From contig NW_018403513.1 of the NCBI RefSeq assembly GCF_002113885.1, forward strand, positions 706,883 to 770,882: a stretch of DNA of 64,000 bases, in the 5' to 3' direction. Shown here in pieces: positions 2,982 to 45,000 of this stretch. Position 1 is the first letter of the stretch. Each line of letters opens with the position of its first letter. The position numbers were made by a program, and so were the translations under genes. The notes beneath the pieces are model-generated. The model was not told the origin of the DNA. It did not search any database and saw nothing but the letters and a program-made list of their open reading frames with translations. The DNA is from Mizuhopecten yessoensis (taxonomy: Eukaryota).

Positions 2982-3087
2982 ATGGGCACGCCAGTAGTTA
3001 TAACCAGCACTGTTCTGCTGCTGTACATGTTCAGTATACCAGTCGCTCCACAGCAAGCCAACCTACAGCAGCCACAGGCTTTCCAGG
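2982..3087 (+). CDS. HEXB: Hexosaminidase coding exon 1 (signal peptide: [35 protein letters not shown])
   Basis: Pyrimidine-rich acceptor ttttacag ending 2958; in-frame stop upstream of ATG 2982; hydrophobic stretch; donor G|gtaagt at 3087/3088, phase 1, matching the next exon. Confidence 0.7.
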
Positions 3088-6000: not shown

Positions 6001-9000
6001 CTTCTTCAGAACTAAAACACCTACCATCATTATATTTAGCAAATAGGTACCAGTGATGGAGTTCAGTCAAGTTTTATTATATAAATGACCTTGACCCACT
6101 TTCAAGGTCAGAGAAGTAAAATATATTAAAAACGACAATACAACATTATCTAATAAACCATATGTGTTTTCTCCAAGTACCACATTTAGTCTCACTGCAC
6201 AACTCAATCTGGGCCAACAATATTGGCTAATAGAAGTTAGAAAAGCTTGTTTTATAATTGTTGTAAAATAAGTAAAATTTGTACTTATATCTGTGTGAGT
6301 GATATAAGCACTTTGGGCCTGTTGTTTATATATACACTAAAAAACGAGTTGTAACTTACTACCCTTAGTAAACATTCTACACACAGCTCACATAGCTACT
6401 AACACTCTACTAATTAAGCTATTGAGACACATTGACACATTAAATCTACCCTCCTAAGGATTGTAACGGTTGATACTGAGCCTTATGTCTGGTTATATTC
6501 CTATGTATCTAATGAGAATCGTAGGACATTAAAATGTATTTAGTGAGAATTCCAAGACATTAAATTCGAAGAAAGGTACAGGTGTTCACATAAATTGTGT
6601 TTTCTAGATTTGATTTCAAACTGCTCCGAGACATTTTGCAACAGATTTGTGTAATGTGCTGCGTATATAATGTATTAAGTGTGAAGATAGATGTAACAGA
6701 TGTGTAATGTTATCATTTGTATTTCTACTTTACCAGTGAGATTACCAGACAGACAAAACAACGAGGCAGAGCCGGCCGCAGCACATGGAAAAAATATAGA
6801 ATATTTAAATTCCCTCCTGAAGAAGAGGAAGGCCAAAGTGAGCAATGATGGCATTGGTGACAAACAAACTCTAAAATCACGAGTAAAACGGAAGAAGAAG
6901 AGGAGTAAATCGCTAGATGGTAAACTTTCTATAAATAAAAATCCGTCTCCAGTGAACCTTGGAAAACCTCAGGATTTTGTGCAAAGAGCCAGTATAGTGT
7001 CTCAAAACAATCAGAAGGTAGTAACTCCAGGAGTAGGCGGAGCCAACACTGGGGGTGGGGCTAATAATAACGTTGTGGGAGGGGTTAACAATAATGGGGT
7101 TGGCGCTAATAATCTAATTGAAAACAAAATTAAATCACATTTACCAAGTGCTTTCAATAACAATAATAATGATAATGATGCTTTAAAAAGGGCAGAAACG
7201 AATAACAATGTTGTGAACTCGGACGCAAGAGTAAAAGTGATAGAGACCGGTGGGGTCAAACAAGTGCCCCGCCCTCAGGACAGTCTTCCTGTGTTGTCAG
7301 ATAACATTGAGAGAAAAAGTAACCAGGATAGAGAGAAGCCAGTAGATGTTGTAGGAGGACCAAACATGATGCAGGACCCCGGCCAGCTGAGAGCAGACAT
7401 CCAGGCCAACGCTCGTCTCAACCAGGCGGACGCACCTCTCAGAGATGAGAAACCCATTCAAGTTAAAAATGAATTACGGGAAGTTGCACACGATGAGGTC
7501 CACGTCAACTCGGAAGATGAAGTTGTTGAAGCAAAGGACAACATTGTACGCGACAACAACAATCAAATCCGCGTGAATGAGCAACCTGTGCATAACCAGG
7601 AAAACAATTTCCAGGAAAACAACAGGAATTGGCAGCCTGTGATAAACAACAATCCTCCACCGATGCAACAGCATCAACAACAAGTCAACAAGCCGAAGAA
7701 ACAGGACAGCCAGCGCATCATGTGGGACTGGAGTGACTTTCTCATCAACTACGAGCAGTATGTCATGCCGGAGCAAAAGGTGAGGCGTGCTCCACACGCA
7801 ACGACAGGTGAACCGTGGCCAATGCCGCAATATTACATCACGTCGCAGACAAAACTCTTCCGGCTGGACCGGGAAAAGTTCCACTTCCGTATTTCCAAGG
7901 AGACCTGTGACATCATCGAGAAGGCAATTGAGCGATACAAAGACTATATTCTGTATGACAGTGTTCAGGACACGTACGACAACTTGCAACATGCCCAAGG
8001 TTCTAGTCTGGAGGATGTTTATGAGAAATATGGGGATGAGGTCCACACACAAGCCGGTTACATTGATGAACTCAACATTAAGATCAGGCAACCCTGCACC
8101 AGACTTCCCCATGACAAAATGGACGAATCATGTAAGTTCTCTGTCTCTTGCTTTCTCTCCTTTTGTCTCATATACATTCTTTGAATCTTTTTCAAGCTAA
8201 CAGAATACAGATTGTTTTGATAATCATGACAACAAATTCATAGAAAAAAAATACCATTAATACTAAATTCCTTGAAAATTGAGTTACCACATACAACATT
8301 GACGTTGTGTAGCTAGAAATTTAGAGACTTCTAAAAGTCAACCTTTTTAGCTGTGAAGAGATAGAAAGTTTTGAAAGGATCAACTCAGATAGTCAGGTTA
8401 TCAGTTTATTTGTTGCTGTTTTCAGATGACCTTTTTATTAAACGTACTGGAGCCTTTTTATGGGCAAATGAAGTCTGGGGTGCTCTGCGGGGCCTGGAAA
8501 CCTTCAGCCAGCTTGTCTTCAAGGGCACAAATGAAGAGGTATGTCAAAAACATATTACTGTTACTATAATATAAAATATTACTGTTACTATAACATACAC
8601 AACAATGTACCCCTTTTGTGCCCTGTAGCATTCAGATATTGGTAGAGATATTGGTCACAAGCATGACAGTGTGTTAAACACATGATAGCTTTGAACTTTG
8701 ACAATTGACCTCATTGACCTTTAACCTATTTTGATTCGGGCTTTTTGTTTATAATTAAGTTTGAAAATGTAGATCATGTTCATTTGAATATCGTGGAACC
8801 TCAGGAATCTTGACCTCCATAATTCAGAAAAGTATTGTACAGTTACTTTTTTTCCCAAATTGAATGATTAATATTCGTGCATGATATTTAAATATGCAAA
8901 TTTCATTTTTCTGACTTTTTTATGAGAATTATTTAAGTGTCCAGGTTCCACTGTAAATGATAGAAATGTAATCATAATTAAGGTTCTACAACATTTCTTG

Positions 9001-12000
9001 CATATTAAAACTGAAAGGTAAATGTGTATATCTGTTGGATTATCATCAAAAGGTACAATGAAATTAACAAAAAATGCTGTAAGTTTTGCAGACTTCATTT
9101 CATTTAAAATCGGTCCAAAAGATTTGAGCTTGAAATGATCGGTAACTTAATCATCACCAGCCTGAGTACAGGATCTATGTGATACCAAATCTGTGGAGTT
9201 TCTAGGTGAAATAATGTAGTATCAATGAGATTTTCCTGAAGATAGATGATTCTCGGATTACAGGACCAGATCATAGGAAGCATTTAACTTTCGGCCACTT
9301 TAATGCAGCTCTTCATCTGCGATATCTTTTGAATTTTTAGTCACCAGTGGGGGCTATTAATTTCGGTTTCAGTCCCAGATTTTGATCTCTGTTGTCTTGG
9401 GCTGTTAAGTGTATTGCTTCTGTCGGAATATACCAGGCGCTAATTACAAGCTCTTGGATAACTCAGATATCAATTTCCTTTTTAAACAGGAATATCATAA
9501 AACCTAAAGGCGTTCCAAATTTCACACAGGAATTTCAATAAATCCTAAAGATGTTCCGAGTATGAATCAGGCACCTTTGAGGTTCCCGAAGGGGTAAACT
9601 GTCGTATTATAAATTGCGATTGGTTGATTTAGATATTTTTTGTCTGACGAATGACTACCGTTAATATTTGCGTATAGTGCACACTTTTTTAAGGAAAAAT
9701 GAAGTGTCAAGAAAGGACTGTACAAGATTCTCAAGAACAATCCAAAACTTGTCCTTGGTCGCGACCATTTCTCTTAAATTTTACGAGGATTTTCAGAAAT
9801 GTTTTAAAATATGCACCAATAAACTGCTAAATTTCATTGAATTGTATTGTATTGTATTGCCAATTTAACAATTACAATTACAAAAAGTTGCAAGTTTAAG
9901 TCATATTATACAATAGAATCGGATAAATAAACTGGAGTAAAGTAGGCCCAACTTTTCAGGATGTTACGTTGTGAATTGATAAATACCACGTGTCGGGGAA
10001 ACATAATGAAGAATTGCATAGCATTTATCACTCTGTGGATAAAATGTTGTTCTTGGGTAAAATCATGCTGAAGTCTTTAATCTTGACAGTAGGAATGTGT
10101 CAAAGCGACATGGGTAAAGTGGCGAAGTTAGCAAGTTTGTGTACCGCAACGAGTCAAGGTAGCGTGATACTATTAACCGGCAGGAATTTACAATGAAACC
10201 GTTAATGATAAAAGTTTGAGTTTGAAAAATAAATATTAATGGGTTCAAAACAGCCAAATACATTCCGATCTTTTCTTTTCAAAGGAGAATTGCTGAAAGG
10301 TGTTCCTCAAGTCAACGCTAACGTTATATTTGCGACATGCTTTCTTGTTAATTCCATGTGTTGACATAGCTAACCTGAACAGCGTGTATGTATTTACATC
10401 TGGTCATTGATTACCATTTTGATTGACAGTTGGAAATATATCCGTTGTAGCTTGGTCAATGATTTATCGGAAAATGATCATACAGAATGATGGGGTGACT
10501 TTCATGTCATTCTGACATATTTCTAGTTTTATTTCTGTTTTCTTTAACACCTGATAAATACTATGGGTCCTTATCACTGCCAAAAAACTATTCACTGGAA
10601 ACTGTCTGTACGACTGCCACTGGCTAAACATTTCTGAAAAGAAAACCATACAATGTGGAACTTAAATGACAAAATCATAGAGATAACATAAAACAAAGCA
10701 ACAGCAGTGTTTTGAGTGTAAAAATACAAAGGAGTCAGACCAGGACTTGAACCCTGGGCCCCTAATCATTGTACTGTTTTTCTAACCAATGATAAAACCA
10801 TGTCTTGATTGAGCTAGAAATATCCAGAACGACATTAAGGGGAGGTTACTATATGTACGAAAATCTACATTGGAATTATCTGGAGTTTGACAGGGATCTT
10901 TAAATATGTAAAGGAATTGTAGCAATATTAAATATGTAAAGGAAATGTAGCAATATTAAATATGTTTAAAGGAAATGTAGCAATATTAGATATGTACAGG
11001 AAATGTAGCAATATTAAATATGTAAAGGAAATGTAGCAAATATTAAATATGTAAAGGAAATGTAGCAATATTAAATATGTAAAGGAAATGTAGCAAAATT
11101 AAATTTGATGAATTCTTTATTTTGAGAGATTTCAGTAAAAGAATGAACAGTTTTTCCCTTAAGTATAACCCATTACTGCTATGTGTAGAAATCGTAACAT
11201 TTCTTACTGATTTTGCAGCTCTACATCAGAGACACAGTCATCAATGATTACCCACGTTTCTCGCATCGAGGCATCCTCCTAGATACCGCACGTCATTTCC
11301 TCTTCAAGGACACCATCTTTGATGTCTTGGTAAGTTTTTGAGATATGATACAGTTGTCTAATGCTCTTCGGTCCCTGAGTTAACCAATTATTGCATATGG
11401 CATCACTTTTGTACAATTTACAAATCTTGTAGTATCTTCACATTTCCAGTTGACGCAGCCCCAGTGAGGATTGTTTATCTTGAATTCGGAGTGAATGCCC
11501 TTGATTATGATGTATGATTTTCCTTGTGTTGTCCCAATTGCAGCATCAAATTCCACTAACCAACTTCCTGAGAATGGCTTTTTCTTCTATTGAATTTGTT
11601 TACAGCGCTGTTTTTGAATTTTTATGGTTTATCGAACAGAAGACTATAGGGAATGTAATCAGCAAGTTTAACGAGATTTAATCTTACGAGAGAATTAAAC
11701 ATTATCGCTAACTATCCTCAGTATGTGCTTAAACCGTAACAAAGCTAAGTCGATACCGTTGTTGTGTTTGTGTAATCAACATGCGATTTGTTTTCTCGGA
11801 GTGTAAATTCCAATTAACATATATTAATTGACACGTGTACCACTTCAATCAAGAAAACGCGGTAAAACTATATTATCCCGGACATGTAAAGCCGTGGTTC
11901 CTACTAATCAGTCTTCAGTAGCACTAACCGGAACAAACAAAAGAGCCGATTAAGCCTGGTTGATCTAAATGCATTGTAAGATTAATGAACCGAGTGAAAA

Positions 12001-27000: not shown

Positions 27001-30000
27001 TTCTTACCATATCAGTTGATAAAGTATCACCCATTCTAACCATATCAGTTGAGATATCACCCATTCTAACCATATCAGTTGATATATCGCCCATTCTAAC
27101 CATATCAGTTGATGTATCCCCCATTCTTACCATATCAGTTGATATAGTATCACCCATTCTAACTATATCAGTTGATATATCACCCATTCTAACCATAGCA
27201 GTTGATCTATCACGCTTACTTAAATGTACCATATCAGTTGATATATCACCCAATCTAACCATATCAGTCGATATATTAACCAATCTAACCATATCAGTTG
27301 ATATATCACCCATTCTAACCATATCAGTTGATATATCACTCATTCGAACCATATAAGTTGATATATCACCCATTCTAACCATATCAGTTGATATATCACT
27401 CATTCGAACAATATAAGTTGATATATCACCCATTCTAACCATATCAGTTGATGTATCACCCATACTTACATTCGAGTGTGATGCCCATGAGCATCAATTA
27501 CTAACCATATCAGTGGATATATCACCCATTCTAACCATATAAGTTGATATATCACCCATTCTTAAAGCCCTGTCACACCTAGCCGCGTTGCCACTGCGAT
27601 TGCACAGCATTGTTAAATTTCCCAGAGCGCTGTGAGATCGCAGGAAAAATTGACATTTTTCATGAGGATGTCGATGTCACGGTGTTCTCACAGCGACCAT
27701 CGCGTTTCTACGGCGCTCCATGGTGTTCCACCGGGTTCCTACAGAGTTAATAGTTGGCGATTGTCTGCGCTCTCATGGCACTCTCACGGTGCTTCCACTG
27801 CGTGCATCGAGTTGTCACAGCGCCGTATAAGCGCGGTAGAGACGCAGCCTCATCTCAGAGAACGCCATACGATCGCTGTGCAAGCGCCACCGCTAACCAT
27901 TGCATTCGCACTGCGACCTCTACCAGAACAATAGTAATATAATATATGTATTTTGATGTTTTCAGGAGGGTATGACACAGAACAACAGTAATATAATATA
28001 TGTATTTTGATGTTTTCAGGAGGGTTAATATAATTCTATGACACAGAACAACAGTAATATAATATATGTATTTTGATGTTTTCAGGAGGCTATGTCACAA
28101 AACAAGATGAATGTATTACATTGGCACATCGTCGATGACCAGTCCTTCCCATATCAGAGCAAAGTCTACCCCGACCTCAGCGACAAGGTACGTACTGGAC
28201 TGACCATAACCTCAACTGACTAAAGTGGTCAGGCAGACCTGAACTGGCAATAGTGATAAATCTGTCTATTCACTAAAATGACCACAATATATACTAATCA
28301 CATTTTGCTAAGGATCGCTTTTATTTTTGGGCAAATGTGAAAATAAAAATATTTCATTTGGTTTATACCGAGATTATTTTTGAAAAGTTGATTGTTCTTT
28401 CAATTCAACAGCATGCAAAAATTCCAAAAATCGTAGCCACAGGAAAAGGGTTACCCTTGAAATTGGTAACAATGAGGTGTTCACTAAAAAACTTGAATTG
28501 AACAAAACTCATCCTAAATAAACAGAAACTGTTTTAGTATCGAGTGTGATGCCCATGAGCATCAATTACAGCTTCACAACGTCTGCGCATGCCCCAAATG
28601 AGATTGCGTATCCGGTTTTGTGTGATAGCGTTTCACTCTGAGCTACCAAAGGTGTTCCCAGGTCCTAGAGCGTTCTTGGCTGAACATTTCTGGCAGACAG
28701 AGCTGTCTGCAGCATGTCCCACACATGCTCGATGGGATTTAGATCCAGGGAGCGGGCTGGACAATCCATTTGTTGAATAGTCTCTTGCTGTAGATACTGC
28801 TCAGTCACCCTTGCTCTATATATATGTGGCCTAGCATTATCGTCCATAAGGATGAAGACAGGGCCGATAGCCCCAGGGTAGGGTCTGATGTAGGCATCAA
28901 AGATTTCATGGCAGTAAATAGAACCGGTTCCCATTCCTGAAGAGTCCAAGTGCTGTGAACTTGGGCCCAATCCAATCGGTCCCTAATATGGCAGGCAGTT
29001 AAGGGAACTCAAATTGCTGGTCTACATGACCTTAAACCAGCATCATGAGGACGGTTCCTAACTGTCTGAGTGGCTACCCGGGTACCAGAAGCATTTAGGA
29101 GGTCAATCCTTAAAGCTGTGGCAGTCTGGAACCTGTGACGCTGTGCCTGTATGAGCAAAAGTCAGTCTTGGCGCTGTGTTGTAGCCCTAAAATGACCTCC
29201 AGCATGACGTCTGGAAGGGTTTCCGTTAGTTTGAAAACAATTCCAGATCTTGCCACCACACTTTGAGACACCCCAAGGTCTAGCTGCTGCAACCTGACGT
29301 TGAGACATGCTAGCTTGCAGCATTCCGATGCCCCTATTCATTTCACCGTCATTTAACCGTTTTCTAGTTTGTCTTTGTGCCATATTAAAACAAAAACACA
29401 CAAAGAATCAAATTGATTTCCTTAACAATTTGAACAACGCCTTACTTACCCTAGCTTAGCTTTTGAAATGGGTGTACACATGGAAAAACGTGCACACGCT
29501 TTTATGGTTTACTGAACACACCCACACAGGATGATCTGGAAGGCTAACATATTCACCCTAAACAGTACGGAAGAAAAACATAATATCCTTTCTGACATTT
29601 TGATTTAATTTTTTCAAAATATAGGTGATCCATAGCAAAATGTCAGTAGTATAGATTGACAATAGGGCTGAGTTAGGCTCTAAATGGTTCTTTACTGCAA
29701 TTCTGGAACTTTTGATTTGAAATTTTTCTGATTGGGACAGTATCCATTAGTTTTCATTATAATTACAAAAGAAACAGTGAGTTGAGTCAATATTAATAGT
29801 CCAGGCAAATTTTAATACGAACATACACTTAGGGAAATTTCAGGGAACTTACAAAGAGTGACTCAACCATTAACTTGGATTATAACAGATGGATTTTCTT
29901 CATGTCGTCTTATTGACCTGCATTCATGTGCTGATAAATGATAAAAAGTTCTTGCGAATGGTAGCCGATGTTTTTCCATTATGTATTAATGTATCCCATC

Positions 30001-33000
30001 CCTTTCCCTTGTCTGACATGACATCGCTATGCATTGGTGAAGGCAATTACACCACATAGCCAGCACTGGTCTTTAAAATTCTACAAAAAGAAGAGACTTT
30101 AAACTCTAAAAAAAGTCAGTTAAAAAAGTTCTGAATTTGACAGAAGTCATGTTAGAAGTGTATGTGATTCAGGATATATAAAGAGCAATGACAAAAACAC
30201 AGTGGTAACATTTGGGGGGTGGGAGATCCAACGTCCATGCTAGGAGCTCAGCCAAGTACTGTGTTACCCAGCAGTGGTAAAGTTGTTTTATGTGTTAAAG
30301 TTCTGTAGTCAGAAACACAAGTGTTATAGTTACAAAATAAGGCTGGTATAATTGACAAGTATAATTTGGTTTATCCCATGATTGTCATGATATTCAGCGA
30401 ATACATCCACGACACATTTTTTGCGTGTTAATATAGGTAATAAGACCCACTGTGACATCATAAAATAATAATCAATAAGATAATCACAGATTTCCGGATT
30501 ATATTTTGACATCAAAATGGGAAAAAATTGATGTAGAGCCAAGATTTCTGAATATTACAGACTACAGGACTGACTTGGAAAAATGTCGATTTTTTTTCCA
30601 GAAATATTATTTCAGTGATGAAATCCTAACAATTTTTTTGTTTTAGCTCGGCAGAGGCTCACTTTAATGAAGAATTCATAAAACGCCTTTCATAAAAGTC
30701 ATGTCAAAAGAAAACTCCTGTAAACAAACAAGATGTTTTTCAATTGATTTTAAATATCCATGCTAAACTCTTTACTAGAAGTGTTGTATATATATAAAAG
30801 GAAAATCAAGCTCTCCAACTTAGTCCAGTCTCTGTGTTTGCTGTAACATCGAAGTCTGTGTACCATAAAAGCCATATTACTCCTGTTGCTATAGTAAATG
30901 ATAGATTTCCGGAGGATGCTGTGTATGTAAGAGGAGACATTTATATAAACTACAATATGATGCTATAATTGTAGGTGGTATGGGCTCGTTTATCAAAATA
31001 TTTTGTGGAGTTGTGCTGTCAAACAATGCATCGTGTACTTGGTGTTTCTGTGTACAAAAGTGATAGATTCCATTCAATTATCGTACTCGCCCGCATATAT
31101 GAATGTAAAACAGCAACAATTATCGCTGATGTTGGATCCATCTCCATTGTGTAATAAGACCACAGAGGGACTCTAATGGGCAGGCAACCAGAGATTCACA
31201 AGTACAATTAATGCCGTGGATGTTTGGTCATGTCCAAGTCGCGTCAGAGTGATCAATTTAGACTCCCGATTGACCTTGACAGGATTTTTGACCTTCAGAC
31301 TTGCTTCTAAAGCCTAATCAATAGCTATTTACTCATCCGTGCTTAAACCTTACATCAACTGACTCGGGTAATTGAAATCAGTACTAGTTCTACGGCAACG
31401 TTTCACAGTCGGCTGGTAGATTGTTTACATATGTAGCTCTGGGTCTGTCATTCTGTAATGTTTACCTATGTAGCTCTGGTCTGTCATTCTGTAATGTTTA
31501 CCTATGTAGCTCTGTGTCTGTCATTCTGTAATGTTTACCTATGTAGCTGTGGGTCTGTCATTCTGTGATGTTTACCTATGTAGCTCTGGGTCTGTCATTC
31601 CGTAATGTTTACCTATGTAGCTCTGGGTCTTTCATTCTGTAATGTTTACCTATGTAGCTCTGGGGCTGTCATTCTGTAATGTTTACCTATGTAGCTATGG
31701 GTCTGTCATTCTGTAATGTTTCCCTATGTAGCTCTGGGTCTGTCATTCTGTTATGTTTTCCTATGTAGCTCTGGGTCTGTCATTCTGTTATGTTTTCCTA
31801 TGTAGCTCTGGGTCTGTCATCCTGTAACGTTTACCTATGTAGCTCTGGGTCTGTCATCCTGTAATGATTACATATGTAGCTCTGGGTCTGTCATTCTGTA
31901 ATGCTTACCTTTGTAGCTCTGGGTCTGTCATTCTGTAATGCTTACCTTTGTAGCTCTGGGTCTGTCATTCTGTAATGCTTACCTTTGTAGCTCTGGGTCT
32001 GTCATTCTGTAATGACTACCTATGTAGCTCTGGGTCTGTCATTCTGTTATGTTTTCCTATGTAGCTCTGGGTCTGTCATCCTGTAATGATTACATATGTA
32101 GCTCTGGGTCTGTCATTCTGTAATGACTACCTATGTAGCTCTGGGTCTGTCATTCTGTGATGATTACCTATGTAGCTCTGGGTCTGTCATTTTGTAATGT
32201 TTACCTATGTAGCTCTGGGTCTTTCATTCTGTAATGTTTACCTATGTAGCTCTGGTCTGTCATTCTGTAATGTTTACCTATGTCGCTCTGGGTCTGTCAT
32301 TCTGTAATGATTTCCTATGTAGCTCTGGGTCTGTCATTCTGTGATGATTACCTATGTAGCTCTGGGTCTGTCATTCTGTTATGTTTTCCTATGTAGCTCT
32401 GGGTCTGTCATTCTGTTATGTTTACCTATGTAGCTCTGGGTCTGTCAGTCTGTAATGTTTACCTATGTAGCTCTGGGTATGTCATTCTGTAATGTTTACC
32501 TATGTAGCTATGGGTCTGTCATTCTGTAATGTTTCCCTATGTAGCTCTGGGTCTGTCATTCTGTATTGTTTACCTATGTAGCTCTGGGTCTGTCATTTTG
32601 TAATGTTTACCTATGTAGCTCTGGGTCTGCCATTCTGTAATGTTTACCTATGTAGCTCTGTGTCTGTCATTCTTTAATGTTTACCTATGTAGCTCTGGGT
32701 CTGCCATTCTGTAATGTTTACCTATGTAGCTCTGGTCTGTCATTCTGTAATGTTTACCTATGTAGCTCTGGGTCTGTCATTCTGTAATGATTTGTTTTTC
32801 ATTTCTTGTATCTGTAGTAGATACTGCTTTCATTGATGTTTCAAGCCGACACAGAATGTTTAAAATGATGACAAATTAACCATTTATTTACTCAATAAAA
32901 ACAAATTAGTATGGCCGAACGCGTGTATTCCTTGTGGAATCTGTCTGCACGGTAACACAGACCTTTGCAGAACTCTTTGCACAGACGTTGGATATCCCAC

Positions 33001-36000
33001 TCCCGTATATTATAGAATTGTGCTTTTAACAATGGCATAATAAAAAGCATCTCCTAGCTGGAAATTGCAATTATTTGAAAAACAAAACTAAAAAACAAAG
33101 AAACAAAATTTTGATAATTAATTAAATATGTCGAAAACTTGTAATGATGGAATATGTAGTGCTTAATTGGATATTTTTTTAACGATCAGTGGGGACTTAT
33201 GGAAGGCATCTGCTTGAAAAGCATATAATTATACATAAACAAAATTTTGTCCATTTAAAAGCATTATTTGAGTTTCATGAACTTAAATAATTTATTCCCG
33301 AACGTTTGTAAAACTGGAGCCAGGTGAGAGAAATCATACAAATTTGACATCGTTAAAATATACACTTTTCTCTCTCTTGTGTCAAAGTTGTCATTGCAAT
33401 TAACAGAAGATGATTTTGTTGTTAGTTAAACGTGTAACTTTTCTTTCCCACCTTCCTATTGAATATTGTAACAGATGATTAATTGGCTGTCACTTGGGTC
33501 AATGACCATGTGGTAGGAGAAATAAAGTAACACTAAACTGTTTCTCTCCAATTTTTCAGGGAGCGTACCATCCTACTTTTGTCTACACTCATGAAGACCT
33601 GGATGAGATAATTGAGTATGGTAGGATGCGTGGGATCCGGATCATGCCCGAGTTTGACACACCAGGTGAGTACAATACAAATAAGGCAAGAGTTTCTAAG
33701 ATTCTATGAATGTCCAATTCAGGTGATAGGCTTGGAGAAGTTATCCAGATCTGACCTGTACTGTTTGTTCTTTAGACAATTGGACTCAATGTCGTATAAA
33801 AGGAGGTTGTTGCTGTTCCCCCCCCCCCCACCCCTGGGGCAGAAAGGTGTGGCCTATTTAGGTGAGGTAAATGTTAAAAACTTTCTCCTTCCTCCTTCTG
33901 TATGGATTAAAGCATTTCTACCAGATTCAATCTGGAGCATCCTTGGATCGAGTGGGCTCACTGATGTGTAAAGGAAGGTGTGCCATCTCTATTTGACCTT
34001 TGACATTGACCTCAATTACTAAAACATGTAATACATGTTTCGTAAGCACTTTGCACATAGGCACAGGAATTTGGTGTGTCGTGTACTAAAATGAGGTCAC
34101 ATTGACTTCTTTTTGACATTTGACCTGGACCCCAAGTACTAGAATAAAGTGTTACCCAGATTTCTATATCATACCTTGGCTTCTGTTTCATTATGGACTT
34201 CAGACTTACTGTAAAGGTACTTAATGGTCAAGCAATATGTCTCGTAATAAAATTGTGAAATCAATATGACTTCAACTTGATGTGGAGGTACATCATTGTC
34301 AGGTGGTGTGTCATGGAATGTAATGAGGTTTATAAGGTCATTGAGCAAGTATTTGACCTTGGTCTCAAGTACCAAATATTTTAAATGCAGCATAACATAG
34401 CTTTCAGGAAGTTTATAACTTTGGAAATATTCCGTTTGTAGGAAATGTTGAATAAATATGTTAGTTTAGATCTAATATAATGTGTAATCAATCTATCATC
34501 ACATCAACAATACCATATAGAAACAGATATGTTGGGTGCAGGGGTTTCCGTGAAGCCAGTGCTTCAAGGTAAATCTAGTTTGTTATGTTGTGAGAAAATA
34601 GTATCAAACCGTATTACAGGGTAGGAATTCAATGTTTTCTCCTGAATAAAACTTTTGTACAAAATGTTCAGCTAATGAGAACCAGGTGCATGGTAGCACT
34701 AGTACTCTGAATGGTCTTCCGCAAAATAAATACCTGGATTGAAATGAAACTGTATGACAGGTATCATTATAGTTATGTAATGTTGTCTGATAATCTATTC
34801 ACAACTTGCTGTACGCATTTCACCTAATATTCTGGCGCCAGGTGCAGGTAAATGACAAGGGTTGATTTTGTTATTCAGAACACATTGTTCCTCAAACAAT
34901 AGACCTTAGGTTTGAATTATTTTTCCCATCAGAGCAGAGACACAGAGGTTCCACAACGAGTGGTGGTTGGTTATCGTGTTTATGTAACATGAGTAAGTTA
35001 TTGAATTAATTTTAATTAGAGTTTGATAAACATGATAATCAACTTACTATCATGAGTTTAGGGATGGTTTTCTCCCAAAATGTTCAGGTATTATATCTAG
35101 ACAGGTATTATATCTAGACAGGTGTTATATCTAGACAGGTATTATATCTATAGACAGACAGGTATTATATCTAGACAGGTATTATATCCAGAAAACTGTG
35201 TGTTTCTCTTGGGAATACGATATTCCTGTTTTCTTTCAGAGAAACAATTGCTATAATCAATGACATCACAATGGAAGATGAGGTTGAAAACCATTGTCAC
35301 TAAGTGACATCATAAGATTGGCCAATGAAATAAGTTCCAAGTGTTTTTTAAATTCCGAAAATTTCAAATCAGGAAAGGAGAAAATTCAAAAAGATTTTGT
35401 CAGTATTCAAGTTATTGTTTCAAAATCCCTGGGGATTTTCTCATTATGTAAAACACGTATTTTAATGAATACTCCATTTACCTTAATATTTTCACCAATA
35501 CAAAAGCGTAAACGTTCTGAACTGTTTAAGATAACGACACCACTGATGATAAGAGTCACATGAATGTCTGTCTAGATTCTCAGTCCTGGTTGATATGTAC
35601 AGCTAAGTTTATGCAAACAGTTCTTATTTCTGTTTGTATAGGGTTTATAATGTAAGAGTTGGTCAGTTTTAGTTGGCTGAATCTGTTGTTGCCTTTTAAC
35701 ACTTCCTGTAATGCATATCATTTTGTGGTAACTCTCCAAAGCCATTTTTATCATGGATCACTTTTATGTAAAATTCTTCATATTTTATCAATATTTTTGA
35801 CTACATTACATTCTATTGAATGAATGAATTATTTATTTCAAGAGTCACAAATCAGTTAAGAAATGCTAAATGACAAAAGGTTCTCTGATATAGTAATTCA
35901 TACCTTTAGTTTTATCAAACTGGTGCACAACTCAGGAAAATCCCCAGTAAATGGTGTCTATAGGAAAATGGTACTTAGGAGTTAATGATAAATGCTTGAG

Positions 36001-39000
36001 GCGGAAGTAGTATGGCCAGCTAAAACCCAGTGGACGTTTCACTCGGCCATATGACTGCATTTCCTCGTCATGTGGATAGACAATATTGATACATAAAAAG
36101 GGCTTTAAATCTTAAATGAGATACCCGACCCATTATGTGAAGATGTATATATATATACACATATAAGGTCTACTGACATGGAAACCTATCATCATTACAC
36201 AATCATAAAGAAATTTGTGACAAGATTATAAAAAAATAATAATCCCAAAACTGTCCCTTTAATAGAAGTTCCATACAATATCACTTAGTACTGTATTGCG
36301 GTTTAAATTTGCGGGGTCAATAATTTGCAGTTTCGTATTCAGTACATATTCGCGGGGGTTACATTTTGCTGTGCACCCAAATCCCATGTGTCATGCAACG
36401 TACTTGAGTGTCATCATTTAAGGGTTAAATCTCAAATTACAAGTAAACCGTTTGAAAACACTGATCCCGATTGTTGTCATCCGCTAGTGACTTCACTCAA
36501 AAGAAAATCAAATGTGTATGTACCTTTGTAGGAGTGGTGATAATCTTATTTGAGTTCATTTAAGCTTACATAACAGCGTTGGGTTATAAGTATTTTCAAC
36601 ATGTTGTGATAAGGTCCGTAAAAGTGGTTAACATTTTTGATAATTTCCCTGATGTTTAGCATTCACAGATATTAGTCAAAGCTTGAATATAGGGAAAATT
36701 ATAACCTCCCGCGATATGTAACCGCTATACAGTAGACAATTTTTGGATGAAGATGGTCCTGTATTCATGTTTAAACTGTGACTATGTACATGTTTTATAT
36801 TTTTCATTGTATAAAACTAGCTATAACTTCTGAAATATCTGTCAAATTCTGACCAGGGGTCAACTCCACAAAGAGTAATATAAGAGAAATGTCTCAGTCA
36901 ATCCATGGTAAATCTGAAATGTGTTTTTAAACGAAAAAGTCAAACACCTGCAACACAGGATATATGGAGAATTTTATAAATTGCTAGCGGACAACTGGAG
37001 GGAAGTATGGTGCTGGAATTTTCATATCGAGTTACATCATTATTGGATTACAAGCTAGCATATGTCTTCATTAGACTGAGGGACACAGACAAGGCAACAG
37101 TCCCGGTCAGTCCTATCTTGATACCATCCAGAAATTATTGCTTTTCTGTATGTTATCAACGTAATGATATACAATTTTTTTCAAATGGAAATATTCGATG
37201 TACATCTAAGTGAGGCAGAAGTAAAAAAAAATACAAAAAAAATCGTTAAAAAAGTGTCTATATTTTTCCATGTTTCCTGCATCAGACTTTAAAAGTTGAT
37301 TTTTTTTTCAATCATTATTTCCCATGAAAGTCATACAATTCTGAAGGAGATAAATAAATAAATGCTTGGCTTCACTTTATTGGAACCTGAATTTACTCAA
37401 TACTTTTGCATGTAAAAATGTATTTATGTTGAGGGAAAGTAGATAATAAATTGTGTTTTGTGAGAAAATGATTTTCAGAGTCAATGGGATAAATAGCATA
37501 GGTATGACTGATAGTAATGATTGACAGATCACCAGTAGTCACAAGAAAGTGCATTGTTCTTTTATAATGGAGACTTGAACCTGTATAACCTGTCCTTGAC
37601 AGTTTGTTTGTTCAGACATATGTTACACTTATTACTGGTGAATGTCATAGTAATTAAATTAAGGGTCATACAAAAACCCAATGTGGCAAAGTTAGGAAAA
37701 ATTTCAACATACACAATTGCATGATAGTTTTAGGGGGGACTTCTTTGTATGACAAAGTCAGGGACAAACACAGTGCATGACAATGTTTGAAAGACACAGG
37801 GGCATTACAACTTAAGTTCTGACAAGGTAGGGGCAAACTCAATGTTTGAAAGACACAGGGGCATTTCAACTCATGGTCTGACAAGGTAAGGGTAAACTCA
37901 ATGTTTGAAAGACACAGGGGCATTACAACTCATGGTCTGACAAGGTAAGGGTAAACTCAATGTTTGAAAGACACAGGGGCATTACAACTTAAGGTGTGAC
38001 AAGGTAGGGGCAAACTCAATGTTTGAAAGACACAGGGGCATTACAACTCATGGTCTGACAAGGTATGGGTAAACTCAATGTTTGAAAGACACGGGGGCAT
38101 TACAACTCATGGTCTGACAAGGTAGGGGCAAACTCAATCTTTGAAAGACATATGCAGGGGCATTAACTCAAGGTAGGGGCAACCGTATGGAGAAACTGTG
38201 CCTGACAGAAACAGGGACAAACTTCATGTTTGATAGAAAATGGGTATTACAGCTAAAAGTCTGACAAAGAAAGTCGATGTCTGACAAAGAGGTTGGGAAA
38301 AACTTGATGAAAGAGAGATTTTGATGTCTTACAAAAATAGGGACAATTATGCTCAAGGTCTGCTGACTGCAGGGAAAAACAATGTCTGGCAGGGAAAAAC
38401 AATGTCTGACAGAGTCAGGAAAACTACATGTCTTTGGAAAGATGGAGAAAACTTGTTATCTGACAAAATAGGAATATTGAATAATAATTCTGAGCTTGGA
38501 AAGAGCTAGTTAGGGACAAACTCTGTGTCTAGCAGTGGTAGGGACTAATTGAACCTCTGACTGTAGAAAAATACACATTGTCAGGACGACTAAGGTCAGG
38601 ACGACTAAGGAAAGTACTTGGAATGTTTGAAAGTAAATTGAGCACTATTTCAGAAACAACATGGATATCTATACTAATTCTACATTGTCTTTCAATGTGG
38701 TGTTATAAGTTCCCTAATTCAAAACCATGTTCAGTTTTGTAGTTTTACAAAGAGAAAGAAAAATGACGACATTGATGATGTTGTCTTCAGATCTTGTTAG
38801 TGAGCGCCTAGCAACGAACTAAGTATAGCTTATGGTTATGTCTGTCCCTTTACTTCTGGTTGGTAATGAATCATTGTTACAGTTTCTAGAGCTATTTACC
38901 GAGGTTGTTCGCACTGCAATGTTTGTGCTATGTTGGGTAGTATTATCTGATTAGTGCCTGTGTTTACAGTAACTATCCTTCTGAAAGCCACCTCAGAACA

Positions 39001-42000
39001 AAACAACAATTGAACATGTTCAACTTTTTGTTGAAATGTCAGAACCTTTTCTTTTCCACTATGTGTTCAAAAGTCACTTGTCTGTTGACTTGGAGGTATT
39101 TCACAGTTGTAGCATTTCATCAAAGATGTGGGATGTAACACTCCTTGTGAAGTTGTGCACATTTGATTTTTTTCTCCTGAATAATGTAACATTACGGGCC
39201 GAAGGTAGTCTGGCTGACTGAACCTGCCGTGACCCACGCGTCGTCGCTGGACAGTTTACACAGGCTAATTGTACTTAAATTGGCAATCTAACCGGATCCT
39301 TCCTCAATTCTTTTACAAAACCTTTCACCCCAATGACGTACAAGTTAACTTGTTATTCACATAACCCTAGTCCGCCCCGTGTTGTGCATTACGTCCGGTA
39401 CTTAGCAGATGTCACAAGAGACACAACACAAAGGATCAGGATTTAACCTTTTTACTGAGTAAAGGAACCTAATGTGTCACATTGCCGGCTTATATTGCAA
39501 TGCTATCATTTCAGAAACGTGACTTCTCAGATCTAAGGATCAGTCGTCTGCCGGTTCATGCACCTAGTAAAAACATTTTTTTCTATTTGTGCAGTATTTT
39601 TAGACAAGTTATCATAAAGAACTGTCAGTAGGGCAAATCAACTTTTAAAGTTCTGGTTTTGACCTGGTTAAGTTCACTTTTACAAAAACATGTGTATAAT
39701 AATGTACAAAAAATGGTATTTTTTAGTTGTAATTCTTCTTGTTTTCAAAAAGAAATAAAAATTTGCGAAAATTCAAGAGCGAATGCATATTCTAACTCAA
39801 ATCCCATATTCTGATGCTGATTCAGTAAAGTCAGTTGGATTGAAGGTGTGAAGATCTGTTGGATACAGATATTTAAAATGGTGGTCTGTTGTTTAGAGAA
39901 GATCTCTTCTTCCCTTGATAACTTGATAATGCACCATTGTCAAATAGTGAATTGATCAAAGTGGTATAGCTTTTAACTATATAGCGGATCCTCAAAATAA
40001 CAAGTAAGTAGCTAAAATATCTTAAATCTATGTTACATTTACAAACATATTTCATTTTAAAAGAATTGCGTCAACAACAAAACAAAAACGTAAACAGAAT
40101 TTACTTTCTCAATTTGGACCGAAACTTGAATTTTTAGCACCATATTGGAATTTGATAGTATTACATCACAGCTCCAGTGTCACCAGTGGGCAGGTGTGAC
40201 CACTTCTCCAGTGTCACCAGTGGGCAGGTGTCACCAAAGCTCCAGTGTCACCACAGCTCCAGTGTCACCAATCGGGCAGGTGTCACCACAGCTTCAGTGT
40301 CACCAATCGGGCAGGTGTCACCACAGCCCCAGTGTCACCAATCGGGCAGGTGTCACCTCAGCTCCAGTCTCACCATTGGGGTCGGTGTCACCACAGCTCC
40401 AGGGTCCCCAATCGGGCAGGTGTCACCACAGCTCCAGAGTCACCATTGAGCAGGTGTCACCACAGCTCCAGTGTCCCCATTGGGGTCGGTGTCACCACAG
40501 CTCCAGGGTCCCCAATCGGGCAGGTGTCACCACAGCTCCAGTGTCGCCAATCGGGCAGGTGTCACCACAGCTCCAGGGTCACCAATCGGGCAGGTGTCAC
40601 CACAGCGCCAGTGTCACCAATCGAGCAGGTGTCACCACAGCTCCAGTGTCACCGTTGGGCAGGTGCCACAACAGCTCCAGTGTCACCAATCGGGCAGGTC
40701 TCACCACAGCTCCAGTCTCACCATTGGGGCCGGTGTCACCACAGCTCCAGTGTCACCAATGGTCAGGTGTCACCACAGCTCCAGTGTCACCATTGAGGAA
40801 GGTGTCACCACAGCTCCAGTGTCCCCAATCAGGCAGGTGTCACCACAGCTCCAGTGACACCATTGGGGCCGGTGTCACCACAGCTCCAGTGTCACCAATT
40901 GGGCAGGTGTCACCACAGCTCCAGTGTTCCGTGGGCAGGTGTCACCAAAGCTCCAGTGTCACCACAGCTCCAGTGTCACCAATAGGGCAGGTGTCACCAC
41001 AGCTCCAGTGACACCATTGGGGAAGGTGTCACCACAGCTCCAGTGTCCCCAATTGTGCAGGTGTCACCACAGCTCCAGTGTCACCAGTGGTCGGGTGTCA
41101 CCACAGCTCCAGTGTCACCAATGGGGCAGGTGTCACCACAGCTCCAGTCTCACCAATGGGGCAGGTGTCACCACAGCTCCAGTCTCACAATTGGGGTCGG
41201 TGGCACCACAGCTCCAGTTTCCCCAATCGGGCAGGTGTCACCACAGCTCCAGGGTCACCAATCGGGCAGGTGTCACCACAGCTCCAGTCCCACCATTGGG
41301 GTCGGTGTCACCACAGCTCCAGTGTCACCAATGGTCAGGTGTCACCACAGCTCCAGTGTCACCACTTGGGGCGGTGTCACCACAGCTCCAGTGTCCCCAA
41401 TCAGGCAGGTGTCACCACAGCTCCAGTGTCACCAATCGGGCAGGTGTCACCACAGCTCCAGTCTCACCATTGGGGTCGGTGTCACCACAGCTCCAGTGTC
41501 CCCAATCGGGCAGGTGTCACCACAGCTCCAGCGTCACCATTGGGGAAGGTGTCACCACAGCTCCAGGGTCCCCAATCGGGCAGGTGTCACCACAGCTTCA
41601 GTGTCGCCAATCGGGCAGGTGTCACCACAGCTCCAGTGTCCCCAATTGGGCAGGTGTCACCACAGCTCCAGTGTTCCCAATCCGGCAGGTGTCACCACAG
41701 CTCCAGTGTCACCAATTGGGCAGGTGTCACTACAGCTCCTGTGTCCCCAATCGGGAAGGTGTCACCACAGCTCCAGTGTTCCCAATCCGGCAGGTGTCAC
41801 CACAGCTCCAGTGTCACCAATCGGGCAGGTGTCACTACAGCTCCGGTGTCCCCAATCGGGAAGGTGTCACCACAGCTCCAGTGTCACCAATTGGGCAGGT
41901 GTCACCACAGCCCCAGTGTCACCAATCGGGCAGGTGTCACCACAGCTTCAGTGTCACCAATCGGGCAGGTGTCACGACAGCTCCGGTGTCCCCAATCGGG

Positions 42001-45000
42001 AAGGGGTCACCACAGCTCCAGTGTCACCAACGGGCAGTTGTTTCATGTTAAATGTTTTTACCTTAAAGTACAAGGGAGTCATGACGCAGAACCATAAATG
42101 TACCATAAATAAAACAAAATATGCTTTTGTCTTTTACATCACAGCTCCAGTGTCACCAGTGGGCAGGTGTCACCACAGCTCCAGTGTTCCCAATCCGGCA
42201 GGTGTCACCACAGCTCCAGTGTCCCCAATCGGGCAGGTGTCACCACAGCTCCAGTGTCACCAACGGGCAGGTGTTTCATGTTAAATGTTTTTACCTTAAA
42301 GTACAAGGGAGTCATGACGCAGGACCATAAATGTACCATAAATAAAACAAAATATGCTTTTGTCTTTGGCCAACGTTAAATGTTTTGTGACAATGAAAGA
42401 GTTAAATAATTTCCAATTATAGCAGAAAAGGCAGAAACAGTTAGATTTGTTTCAATTATATTCCAAAGTGAAGATGGTGTTCGTCAGTTTTGAAAAATGT
42501 ATTATACAGAATTGCCAGTTGTCATTGCATAGAGCCACACTCGAAAGTCTGTTAATTCGATTGAAGATGGAAGTTATTAAAGAACAAGGAACTTCCTGCA
42601 TTTGTTTGTTATTCTGTTTCCTCAGCTTTTGTTCAAGTGATCAATAAAACCGCTACATGTACGGAGAAGATTTTGCATCATTATGACAACATGAAAGGAA
42701 GGGCTGACGGAGCTTCATTTATTGTTCCATCTAAATCAATATACATCGCGCCTCAGTTGTGGGATGGAGCTTTGAATAACCCTCATCAAAATCATACGTC
42801 AATCTATTCCTTCGTTTCTAGGAATAAATCTAAATAGAAAAAAATGTGATATTTTCTTTGAATCCAATTTTCACCATGTTGGCTAAAACCCAATTTCTTC
42901 AAAAGGGGTTTCAGAAATATTGTAATGCTGCAATTTAAATTTAGACAATCAGCTTGAACAAAGAACTATGCTTTAAAGTGCTACTTGTACTAAATGGCCC
43001 AGTAGATTTGGACTAAATTTGGTCTGGAGCATCCTTAGGCCATTAGGAGACTCAATTTTGTATAAACTGTGGATGTGGCCCCCTTGGGGGCAGAGGGGTG
43101 GGTCCCAATAGGGGAAATAGAGGTAAAACCTTTAAAATCCTTCTTCTACCATGGAGATTCAGGGATTTCATCCCAATTTGGTCTGGAGCATTGTTGGGTG
43201 ATCAAGGGGACTCAATGTTGTATAATTGGTGGGTGTGGACCCCCTAGGAGTAGAGTTGCCGGGCCAAATAGGGGAAATAAAGAGTTAAAACCTTTAAAAT
43301 CCTTCTTCTACTGTACCATTGGAGGGATTTTATGTAATAAGAATAATTTCCCATGGTTGCTTTATTATCCAGGTGAGCGATACAGGCCCTCTGGGCCTCT
43401 GGTTTACAGATATAAATGAATTCAGCTTTACAAGGAAAAGTGTGAAGGAAAGAGGTCACTGCTAGATTCAAAGTTGTAACTGTCAAAGTTTTGGGACATC
43501 AATCGTTTATGTGATTAATAGGAGAATGAATTCATAATAACAGAAACAACTGTAAAGGCCAAGAAAAAAAATGTGTGTTTCCGATTTCCTTACCAACCCT
43601 AGATTTTTGTGCCTTCCCTAAAGTTTTTATTGGCATTTAGTGATGAGCAATGTTAAAAGTCAGAAGTCCTGCTCTATATAAGCGTAGTAATAAAAATTAA
43701 AAAAATTGGCTACCTGCCGACCCCCAGTAGAAACAGGAAACACACATATTTCTTTTTTGGCCTTATATGGGTGGAAAAATCTATGTTTTGTAGAATTCTG
43801 GTTCTAAAATGCCAAAAGTATGCTGCATCCAGTCTGATTTTGGATTTAAGAGAATTCAGTTGTTTTCACTTTGAATTCTACAGATTTCTATAACCTTATC
43901 CCTCACAGGTCACACCTATTCCTGGGGCCTCAGTCGACCTGACCTTCTTACCCAGTGTTACCAGGGAACACATCCAGTCAATGGCTACCTGGGACCCCTC
44001 GACCCCAGCAAGAATGAGACATACCGTTTCCTCAAAAATCTCTTCAATGAGGTCCTCCATGTTTTCAAGGATGAGTACATTCATCTGGGAGGGGATGAAG
44101 TTCCCATGACCTGTTGGTAAGGAAAAACACCTATGAATCACTTAAATTTTCACGAGATGTTTTTTGTATGTTTATTACCAAAGAAAGTCAAACGTAAGTT
44201 CAAATATCTCACAAATATTGAGACGAAGTCAAACAAGAAAGATTTATTGAGATTTATTGGTCTTTTCATACCGGTAATTAACACAATCACCCCTGAAATT
44301 TGAGGATGGATTATTCCAACCTTTGAATTGGAAGAGTTCAATTGTGTCTTCAGGGATGAATGAGAAAAAATCCGTACAAATTAGTGGTTTATAGAACAAT
44401 TATATACATTTAAAATTAGTGGATTTTACATAAGTATGGTCATAATGACCGGAGAGAGATTTACCCAGCATATCCGGAGAGTAACAGAGCTGATATAGTC
44501 TTCATTTTCTAGGAAAGCTTTCTTGCAGACGTGAAAGCTTAGAACATGGCGTAATCATAATAAAATTTGTTATCGGAAAAACCAATCAAACATTTGCTTT
44601 CTATAAGATTCCTCGTAATCCAAATATGAAAAAAGAAAACTTGTTTACTGCAAGTTTTCAGAAAGCCAATCTGCCTGAGTTTAACAAAAACCTTAGAGTG
44701 AAGATATCCCAAAGTGACATATAAGATGGAACTCAAGTCAGTAGTAATGTAGCATGAAATAAAATTTGAAAGAACTTGTATAAATTTCTTTTCAATATCA
44801 GGTCATCTAACCCCGAAGTCCTTCAGCTACTCAACAAACTGGACGGTAAACCAGACGAACCAATCAACCTTCAGAATGTCGACCCCTACATGTACAGCTA
44901 CGACATTCGGAAAGTCCTCGAGTTCTACGAAAAACGGTATACAAATAATGACATACATGTCAGGAACACAAAGAGCATGAATTCTTATTAAATTCGTTCC

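Follow-up and report, generated by a model that had tools for sequence, protein, structure and literature searches.

Why should a hexosaminidase of the HexA/HexB type carry several hundred residues of biased sequence between its signal peptide and its catalytic domains? The question is raised by a window of 64,000 nucleotides from the scallop Mizuhopecten yessoensis (contig NW_018403513.1, positions 706,883 to 770,882), in which the frame translated across the stem interval is a 100% match to LOC110447083, a protein of 1062 amino acids; nucleotide positions below are those of this window unless a contig is named. An earlier note, made from the letters of the DNA alone, had proposed a low-complexity stem cleaved in the secretory pathway, perhaps by furin, with a conceivable role in the shell matrix. 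Comparison with orthologous proteins leads us to propose instead a membrane-tethered precursor whose enzyme core is flanked by paired basic sites, at which a proprotein convertase would cut, a reading which, with the cutting deduced from the motifs, we consider to have an even chance of being correct.

An enzyme core of the HexA/HexB type

By sequence and by structural model, LOC110447083 is a HexA/HexB-type GH20 enzyme. Pfam places GH20b (PF14845) at residues 395-530 (E 7e-19) and GH20 (PF00728) at residues 552-890 (E 4.5e-89), both above the curated cut-off, and the closest solved relatives are human HexB (E 1.8e-128) and HexA. The model of residues 393-928 overlays human HexB 54-553 with a Z score of 45.0 and a root-mean-square deviation of 1.4 over 472 residues at 46% identity, compared with a Z score of 36.5 on the insect enzyme OfHex1, and the segment between the two basic sites described below covers the solved extent of human HexB. 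The catalytic motif HLGGDE (H-x-G-G-D-E) is intact at residues 703-708, and 28 of the 31 orthologue-group proteins have it by the pattern used. In the alignment to HexB, YLDL lies at the HexB-type position; we take the Asp-Leu signature of HexB at this place to mark the neutral-substrate type, and YLDL would then suggest neutral substrates.

A conserved predicted hairpin and basic pair at the leader/enzyme junction

Three word-seeded searches and one profile search (1.84 billion representatives, the best 150 matches being listed) yielded 28 full-length members of the orthologue group, which come from bivalves, gastropods and octopus; 14 partial gene calls of 358-608 amino acids were excluded from full-length counts and kept for the junction counts. 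Ahead of the enzyme lies a 28-residue element of fixed length (7705-7788), W-D-W-x-D-F followed by E-x-K-x-R-R-A/S, 11 residues upstream of EPWP. It was found in all 43 proteins that have the region, among 44 examined, the other being a Pinctada model without its N-terminus. Over 45 aligned rows W365, D366, W367, D369, F370 and E381 are invariant, as are K383, R385 and R386, the following residue is Ala or Ser, and the residue between K383 and R385 varies (Val in 20, Ile in 19 and Asn in 6). The model places strands at residues 363-366 and 371-374, a predicted hairpin, with a predicted local distance difference test (pLDDT) score of 62-82 over residues 351-390.

Position 385 is also the only one with a [KR]R pair in all 20 sequences of a separate alignment (A1), the next best kept being 928 (18) and 932 (17), so that the best-kept pairs stand at both ends of the catalytic unit. 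K-V-R-R, which lies at a domain boundary, satisfies the general convertase pattern (R/K)Xn R, and the furin consensus R-x-K/R-R is absent from the leader/enzyme junction, P4 being lysine in 45/45. In the available part of PMC12405487, which gives the general pattern, lysine at P4 is described as not read by furin; on this ground a PC1/3-, PC2- or PC5-like convertase would be the candidate.

A second basic cluster and a predicted C-terminal anchor

The dibasic cluster that follows the catalytic domain, RRGHRR in the scallop, recurs without a fixed sequence. Among 31 proteins of the orthologue group, 30 have a [KR]R pair no more than 16 residues after the last Cys of the catalytic domain, octopus being the exception, against a baseline of 7-9% of random 16-mers and 3/28 further down the linker. 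Both sequence and offset vary, with RRGKRR in many clams and PPKRR or PPRRR in pulmonates and Aplysia, and R-x-K/R-R is contained in 10.

Beyond the linker, two hydrophobic helices are predicted in all but one of 30 proteins of the orthologue group (a Solemya model, whose tail is divergent, lacks the pair), and in 29/29 the loop between them has 14-19 residues, with three to six Lys or Arg and no Asp or Glu. Under the positive-inside rule basic loops lie on the cytosolic side, and the loop is therefore predicted to be cytosolic, with the leader and enzyme luminal. Outside the scallops, identity is 42-68% in helix 2, 32-76% in the 25-residue tail and 0-38% in helix 1. The conservation of helix 2, the tail and an invariant loop Cys points to a possible role in binding, sorting or palmitoylation. 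An atlas search with the C-terminal 138 residues gave no usable match, and a word-seeded search with the C-terminal region returned 10 proteins, all bivalve-type GH20s of the same group, which is weak evidence on other relatives.

How the precursor might be processed

A signal peptide, judged by hydropathy only, would direct the chain into the secretory pathway and then be removed, and the C-terminal helix pair is predicted to tether the precursor with its leader and enzyme in the lumen. A convertase of the PC1/3, PC2 or PC5 kind would cut after R386 and, not being furin, would probably do so in the late Golgi or in granules; the scallop genome contains nine matches to the convertase P-domain. 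This cut would drop the leader together with the hairpin, or the hairpin might stay non-covalently bound, in the manner of fungal hexosaminidases. Further cleavage, at RRGHRR, would free a soluble subunit as large as a canonical one, which would trim neutral terminal N-acetylglucosamine (GlcNAc) or N-acetylgalactosamine. The leader would then be a fast-evolving sorting or solubility segment rather than a mineral-binding domain.

Several observations weigh against such processing. Close relatives and gene calls of a single exon are among the 45 rows, which hence are not independent. Trp, Asp, Phe, Glu, Gly and Pro residues around the first site are as invariant as the basic ones, and the model puts a beta-bridge at residues 384-385 with moderate confidence; because the whole block is invariant and bridged in this way, the first site may be structural. 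The pair [KR]R followed by Ala or Ser occurs in five of seven other mollusc proteins and in one of 10 non-mollusc relatives, the remaining sequences reading x-R-A/S-P, RKG, RMG or HAP, with a single arginine or none. At the other end of the enzyme, octopus is without the second dibasic, as are 14 of 16 wider relatives. The model of residues 362-926 overlays OfHex1 32-588 (in one alignment), with the hairpin falling on the N-terminal extension, and that extension is retained in the solved insect enzyme. As for the substrate, the preference assigned above leans on a HexB signature that we draw from general knowledge. A prediction of the complex between residues 352-386 and 387-926, which did not use the alignments, scored 0.00 and has no weight either way.

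It is somewhat unlikely, in our view, that the protein is never cut, and would remain anchored in the membrane of the Golgi or of the cell surface, with K-V-R-R in a folded N-terminal extension and the leader as a luminal brush, where it may trim N-glycan GlcNAc as do FDL and HEX-2/3. The overlay of the hairpin on the OfHex1 extension counts for this, as does the distribution of the helices, since the wider relatives share them (13 of the 14 wider members have one or more, and six of them have two, as do 29/30 orthologues), which would make the anchor older than the dibasic sites. The orthologues have short branches and a species-like branching order in the trees; molluscs display paucimannosidic N-glycans according to the available text of PMC11065688, and the part available of PMC4339880 allows that processing hexosaminidases may have arisen several times. 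One HEX-2-like scallop exon, moreover, carries GR instead of the catalytic DE. An uncut protein is, however, harder to reconcile with dibasic motifs at both ends of the catalytic unit (the second of which varies in sequence like linker sites) and with a sequence and fold closest to HexA/B rather than OfHex1, and a second HEX-2-like match, on C4686, exists in the genome.

A leader kept in composition but not in sequence

The unusual length of the scallop N-terminus was recognised correctly in the earlier note, which held that canonical Hex subunits reach WPxP early. This motif stands at residue 396 here, against a median of 36 in the 79 proteins, among 125 other GH20 matches examined, that have both a start Met and WPxP (71/79 at ≤70). 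The description of what precedes it, a low-complexity stem of ~330 residues, can be kept only in part: the bias extends to about residue 358 (nucleotide 7704), whereas 7705-7788 is conserved and predicted to be folded, and the stem is biased rather than repetitive, with one GN/NG dipeptide and one weak 21-bp duplication. Asn and Gln make up 24% of it, Gly 6% and aromatic residues 1.8%, Cys is absent, the complexity is 3.85 bits, and the net charge of +0.027 per residue is slightly positive, not acidic. A Gly/Asn run lies at residues 141-156 (7051-7098), an acidic stretch at residues 288-300 and an Asn/Gln/Pro block at residues 335-351; a Pfam scan found nothing above cut-off in residues 36-394. 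The suggestion that the region is disordered agrees with prediction, the pLDDT being <50 across residues 20-349 in an AlphaFold2 model based on 116 sequences, which supersedes an earlier structure prediction from 20 sequences (mean pLDDT 47.4). The fold-comparison lists bear on neither the leader nor the membrane anchor.

Absence of the stem from orthologues would, by the earlier note, have refuted its reading; the stem is present in all 28 full-length orthologues, at 120-487 residues (median 349; octopus 120, Solemya 207). In each of the 28 the leader contains 18-42% Asn plus Gln, against 7-10% in the catalytic part, with 0-2 Cys and few aromatics, and in 27/27 full-length bivalve and gastropod orthologues it exceeds 200 residues. 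Its identity is 60-63% to two other scallops and 5-17% to 17 other molluscs, with no invariant column among 323, where the same comparison gives 63-97% for the GH20 domain. On this alignment, the composition of the leader is kept and its sequence is not. Differences among RNA reads alter the amino acid in 6/12 cases in the leader and in 1/8 in residues 359-500, small numbers which are consistent with relaxed constraint.

Such drift raises the thought, to us a decidedly improbable one, that the leader is a tolerated spacer changing by slippage, and that only the hairpin, enzyme and anchor matter. The lack of invariant columns, the spread of lengths and the read differences would all follow, and the paralogues described below manage with short leaders, but a spacer under no demand fits less well with more than 200 biased residues and 0-2 Cys in 27/27 bivalve and gastropod orthologues, or with the basic block kept in scallops, oysters and the ark clam. 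A drifting spacer can in any case be compatible with a tethered precursor.

The RVKR site and the question of a shell role

The earlier note had looked for cleavage at polybasic sites in the stem, RVKR in particular. This sequence does match the furin consensus, and the secretory pathway is a plausible place for cleavage, though at other sites: RVKR-type motifs are found in the basic block of 6/27 orthologues and K-x-R-R followed by Ala or Ser in 43/43 proteins with the region. The block includes KKRKAK at residues 64-69 (6820-6837) and a 10-residue basic segment at residues 84-93 (6880-6909). Eight Lys or Arg per 10 residues arose in 15/20000 shuffles of the stem, and R-x-K/R-R somewhere in 2825/20000 (14%), so that RVKR alone is weak evidence. 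Eight or nine basic residues per 10 are found in 7/28 orthologues (all from scallops, oysters or an ark clam, or in rows that cluster with these), and R-x-K/R-R occurs in the leader of 7/27 bivalve and gastropod orthologues, in six within the basic block and in one, Aplysia, elsewhere; judged by these alignments, the site is a lineage feature, not a conserved one. A cut there would take off ~65 residues and leave ~270 leader residues attached to the enzyme.

The insert of nacrein we take to be a long Gly-x-Asn repeat array. There is none in the scallop stem, which has only a Gly/Asn-rich patch of 24 residues. No match to the CHB_HEX domain was obtained at E up to 1 in any of the eight proteins scanned, LOC110447083 included, and eight CHB_HEX matches lie elsewhere in the scallop genome. 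The shell hexosaminidases of a nacre proteome preprint (10.1101/2022.09.07.507049) and of MolluscDB (PMC8059625) carry this domain, as far as the available portions of both describe them. That furin cuts at RVKR and that the Gly/Asn-rich stem then acts in the shell matrix like nacrein is thus very improbable: although RVKR is a genuine furin consensus and chance would seldom produce the block around it, the longest leaders are those of bivalves and gastropods, and the accessible part of a shell-repair study in bivalves lists beta-hexosaminidase domains without subtype (PMC8382897), the site is restricted to the minority of orthologues counted above, the stem has neither a Gly-x-Asn array nor an acidic bias, the protein has two predicted membrane helices and an orthologue in octopus, and CHB_HEX, carried by the named shell GH20s, is absent here. 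A shell role is not supported.

Gene structure and transcript support

LOC110447083 has 14 coding exons, all inside the window, from 2982 to the stop codon at 55985-55987 (Table 1). As the earlier note had it, a single 1395-nt exon, which has AG/GT ends, contains all the motifs quoted there, in an open frame that includes EPWPMPQ at residues 394-400 (7810-7830). In two raw RNA runs the splice 3087 to 6737 is supported by four and six reads, 8131 to 8426 by 14 and three, and 8538 to 11219 by 14 and five. Read depth in the raw runs over 6885-7110 is only 0-1.5, and support there is therefore carried by a single contig of RNA run X14, which spans 6736-8131 ungapped, differs at two places and extends into exon 3. 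No splice joints or loose ends are listed near 7700 in the two raw runs, and a second RNA mapping, at 85% likeness, lists no joint, indel or loose end within exon 2. The stem is exonic and part of the message, as had been assumed.

Table 1. Features of LOC110447083 in the 64,000-nucleotide window
Feature	Position	Strand	Basis
Coding exon 1: start codon and signal-peptide-like hydrophobic segment, residues 1-35	2982..3087	+	Protein match; spliced to 6737 in RNA reads; hydropathy peak at residues 4-22
Coding exon 2, 1395 nt: leader, hairpin, first dibasic site, start of GH20b domain	6737..8131	+	AG/GT ends; RNA reads; ungapped RNA contig
Asn/Gln-rich leader, residues 36-358, predicted disordered	6737..7704	+	AlphaFold2 pLDDT, alignment, composition
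Polybasic block, with RVKR furin consensus at 6880-6891	6820..6909	+	Lineage-restricted
W-D-W-x-D-F element, residues 359-382, predicted beta-hairpin	7705..7776	+	Alignment; model
K-V-R-R, candidate convertase site at leader/enzyme junction	7777..7788	+	Putative cut after 7788
GH20b + GH20 catalytic unit, residues 394-926, exons 2-13	7810..55131	+	Pfam, structure overlay, exon map
Catalytic motif HLGGDEV, residues 703-709	44082..44102	+	Aligned to HexB
RRGHRR, second dibasic cluster after catalytic domain, candidate release site	55135..55152	+	Orthologue counts
Predicted transmembrane helix 1, residues 983-1001	55745..55801	+	Hydropathy 2.9; helix in model
17-residue basic loop with conserved Cys, predicted cytosolic	55802..55852	+	Loop charge pattern
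Predicted transmembrane helix 2, residues 1019-1037, conserved polar tail, stop codon	55853..55987	+	Hydropathy, alignment

Two other gene structures were considered and rejected. An internal acceptor near 7700, which by the earlier note would have made the stem intronic and refuted its reading, is ruled out by the RNA joints, and the AG dinucleotides there follow 3-9 pyrimidines in 15, against 11 at the true acceptor. A frameshifted, longer N-terminus in exon 1 is ruled out by reads without an indel and by two other scallops that share the same start Met. A minor splice donor at 3338 joins exon 2 (6737) in two reads of X18, and its contig depth is 69 in X13 and 30 in X14, where the main joint has 724 and 555; it would yield no signal-bearing product, because the frame from the exon 1 start meets stops. 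Within the introns, tandem arrays lie at 25198-27562, 31422-32789, 40177-42367, 48701-50489 and 51436-53581 (units of 30, 37, 35, 157 and 19/33 bp). The large open frames and the swings in GC content in these arrays result from the long tandem repeats, and the long open reading frames at 25-27 kb and 40-42 kb overlap them. In the GH20b domain a group-specific insert at residues ~441-475 (nucleotides 7930-8060, residues ~435-478) is conserved in molluscs, with lower model confidence at ~450-460; an atlas search with residues 355-560 returned GH20b clusters only.

Range of the family and scallop paralogues

Trees of the catalytic part were computed with IQ-TREE from 58 rows (named, plus 22 unnamed), with eight near-duplicate or gappy rows excluded, a short search and a midpoint root. 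In the Shimodaira–Hasegawa-like approximate likelihood ratio test, the orthologues with one Haliotis paralogue received 99, all mollusc members 96, and the mollusc members together with flatworm (Schistosoma, Heterobilharzia, Sparganum, Hymenolepis), annelid (Ridgeia) and nemertean (Tubulanus) proteins 98; FastTree, with 100 rows, agrees with this grouping at lower support. These tail-anchored HexA/B proteins of spiralians would form a clade only if the root falls among the canonical-type rows. Two HexA/B-like proteins, P0059 (Owenia) and P0081 (Watersipora), have an N-terminal anchor-like segment, reach WPxP after 145-212 residues and contain an R-A-P motif; they fall outside the tail-anchored clade and may be a type II form in their own right.

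Four other scallop genes belong to the same group (on C1812, twice on C4580, and on C1335), two of them in tandem, and share the large first catalytic exon and the W-containing element. They have short leaders in the exon read, and their first sites are RIRR-A, TIRR-S, HIKR-A and KLRR-A, while two canonical-looking scallop GH20 genes lack [KR]R followed by Ala or Ser. Because wider members have C-terminal helices and the scallop paralogues have short leaders, the anchor seems to predate the long leader.

The structure of HEX-2, 8qk1, was not among the 53 sequence matches of LOC110447083, and the trees did not include FDL. Another scallop gene does match 8qk1 (E 1.4e-38): a GH20 on C4212 (3370-4494 of its stretch L023, minus strand) with an N-terminal signal-anchor-like segment. 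This is a candidate inactive enzyme, because GAGRA replaces the GADEV of HEX-2, and its downstream frame has a 20-residue repeat tail. We would add a broader speculation, which we think unlikely: that the tail-anchored clade corresponds, in spiralians, to FDL and HEX-2, as a hexosaminidase of the secretory pathway that was recruited independently to the shaping of N-glycans and is held by its two-helix C-terminal anchor, and that in molluscs cuts by a convertase at either end of the enzyme would switch it between a tethered and a soluble form.

Relation to known systems

The enzyme family is well known; the tail-anchored spiralian HexA/B architecture was not found described. In the literature searched, in which subscription journals are thinly covered, there was no description of a C-terminally anchored GH20 with a long leader in molluscs, and no paper on the locus identifier LOC110447083. 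A survey of mollusc glycoside hydrolases reports GH20 expansion and carbohydrate-binding modules, with no anchor mentioned in the available text (PMC7560691); the part available of a GH20 phylogeny has no mention of molluscs and ascribes membrane forms to uncut signal peptides (PMC2492878); and PMC13425148 does not mention GH20. The conserved branch offers a concrete candidate enzyme for the trimming of GlcNAc in the glycan pathways of molluscs and flatworms. The analysis also separates the gene from shell hexosaminidases of the CHB_HEX type, for which shell studies that rely on annotation could mistake it: those enzymes (hic118; MolluscDB OG0020309) are, in the entries as available, likewise molluscan, long and secretory, and the scallop protein lacks CHB_HEX.

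Human HexB and HexA (PDB 1o7a, 1nou, 2gjx) share with the scallop protein the GH20b and GH20 fold, HLGGDE and YLDL at the HexB-type position. To these the scallop protein adds ~320 biased residues, the 28-residue conserved element, inserts in GH20b and GH20, a Cys-containing linker and two predicted membrane helices. HexA and HexB are soluble lysosomal enzymes according to the accessible part of PMC2492878, and the scallop protein has neither the short N-terminus nor the want of an anchor that mark the canonical soluble form. Fungal GH20 propeptides are described, in the available section of PMC4384365, as being cut by a dibasic peptidase and then reassociating. The enzyme of Aspergillus oryzae (PDB 5oar), whose pro-part is removed in this way, resembles the scallop protein in that the latter has a conserved dibasic, where a cut may occur, at a like boundary; it belongs to a different branch, with 31% identity, and the scallop pro-part is mostly predicted to be disordered and is accompanied by membrane helices. 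PAM and IA-2/phogrin are granule precursors, membrane-tethered and single-pass, whose luminal parts are released at basic sites; the likeness of the scallop protein to them is an analogy only.

Insect FDL and nematode HEX-2 and HEX-3 are, in the accounts available to us in part, membrane-anchored GH20s of the secretory pathway, as is predicted for the scallop protein. The FDL-type anchors described there are N-terminal signal anchors (Hex3_Dm), in contrast to the predicted C-terminal anchors and HexA/B-like sequence of the scallop protein. We take the topology of HEX-2 to be that of an N-terminal signal anchor as well. Animal HexA/B-type enzymes are regarded as soluble and lysosomal, and the anchored GH20s of this partly available literature use an N-terminal signal anchor; a C-terminal helix pair combined with prohormone-like basic sites would be a different way of placing a hexosaminidase.

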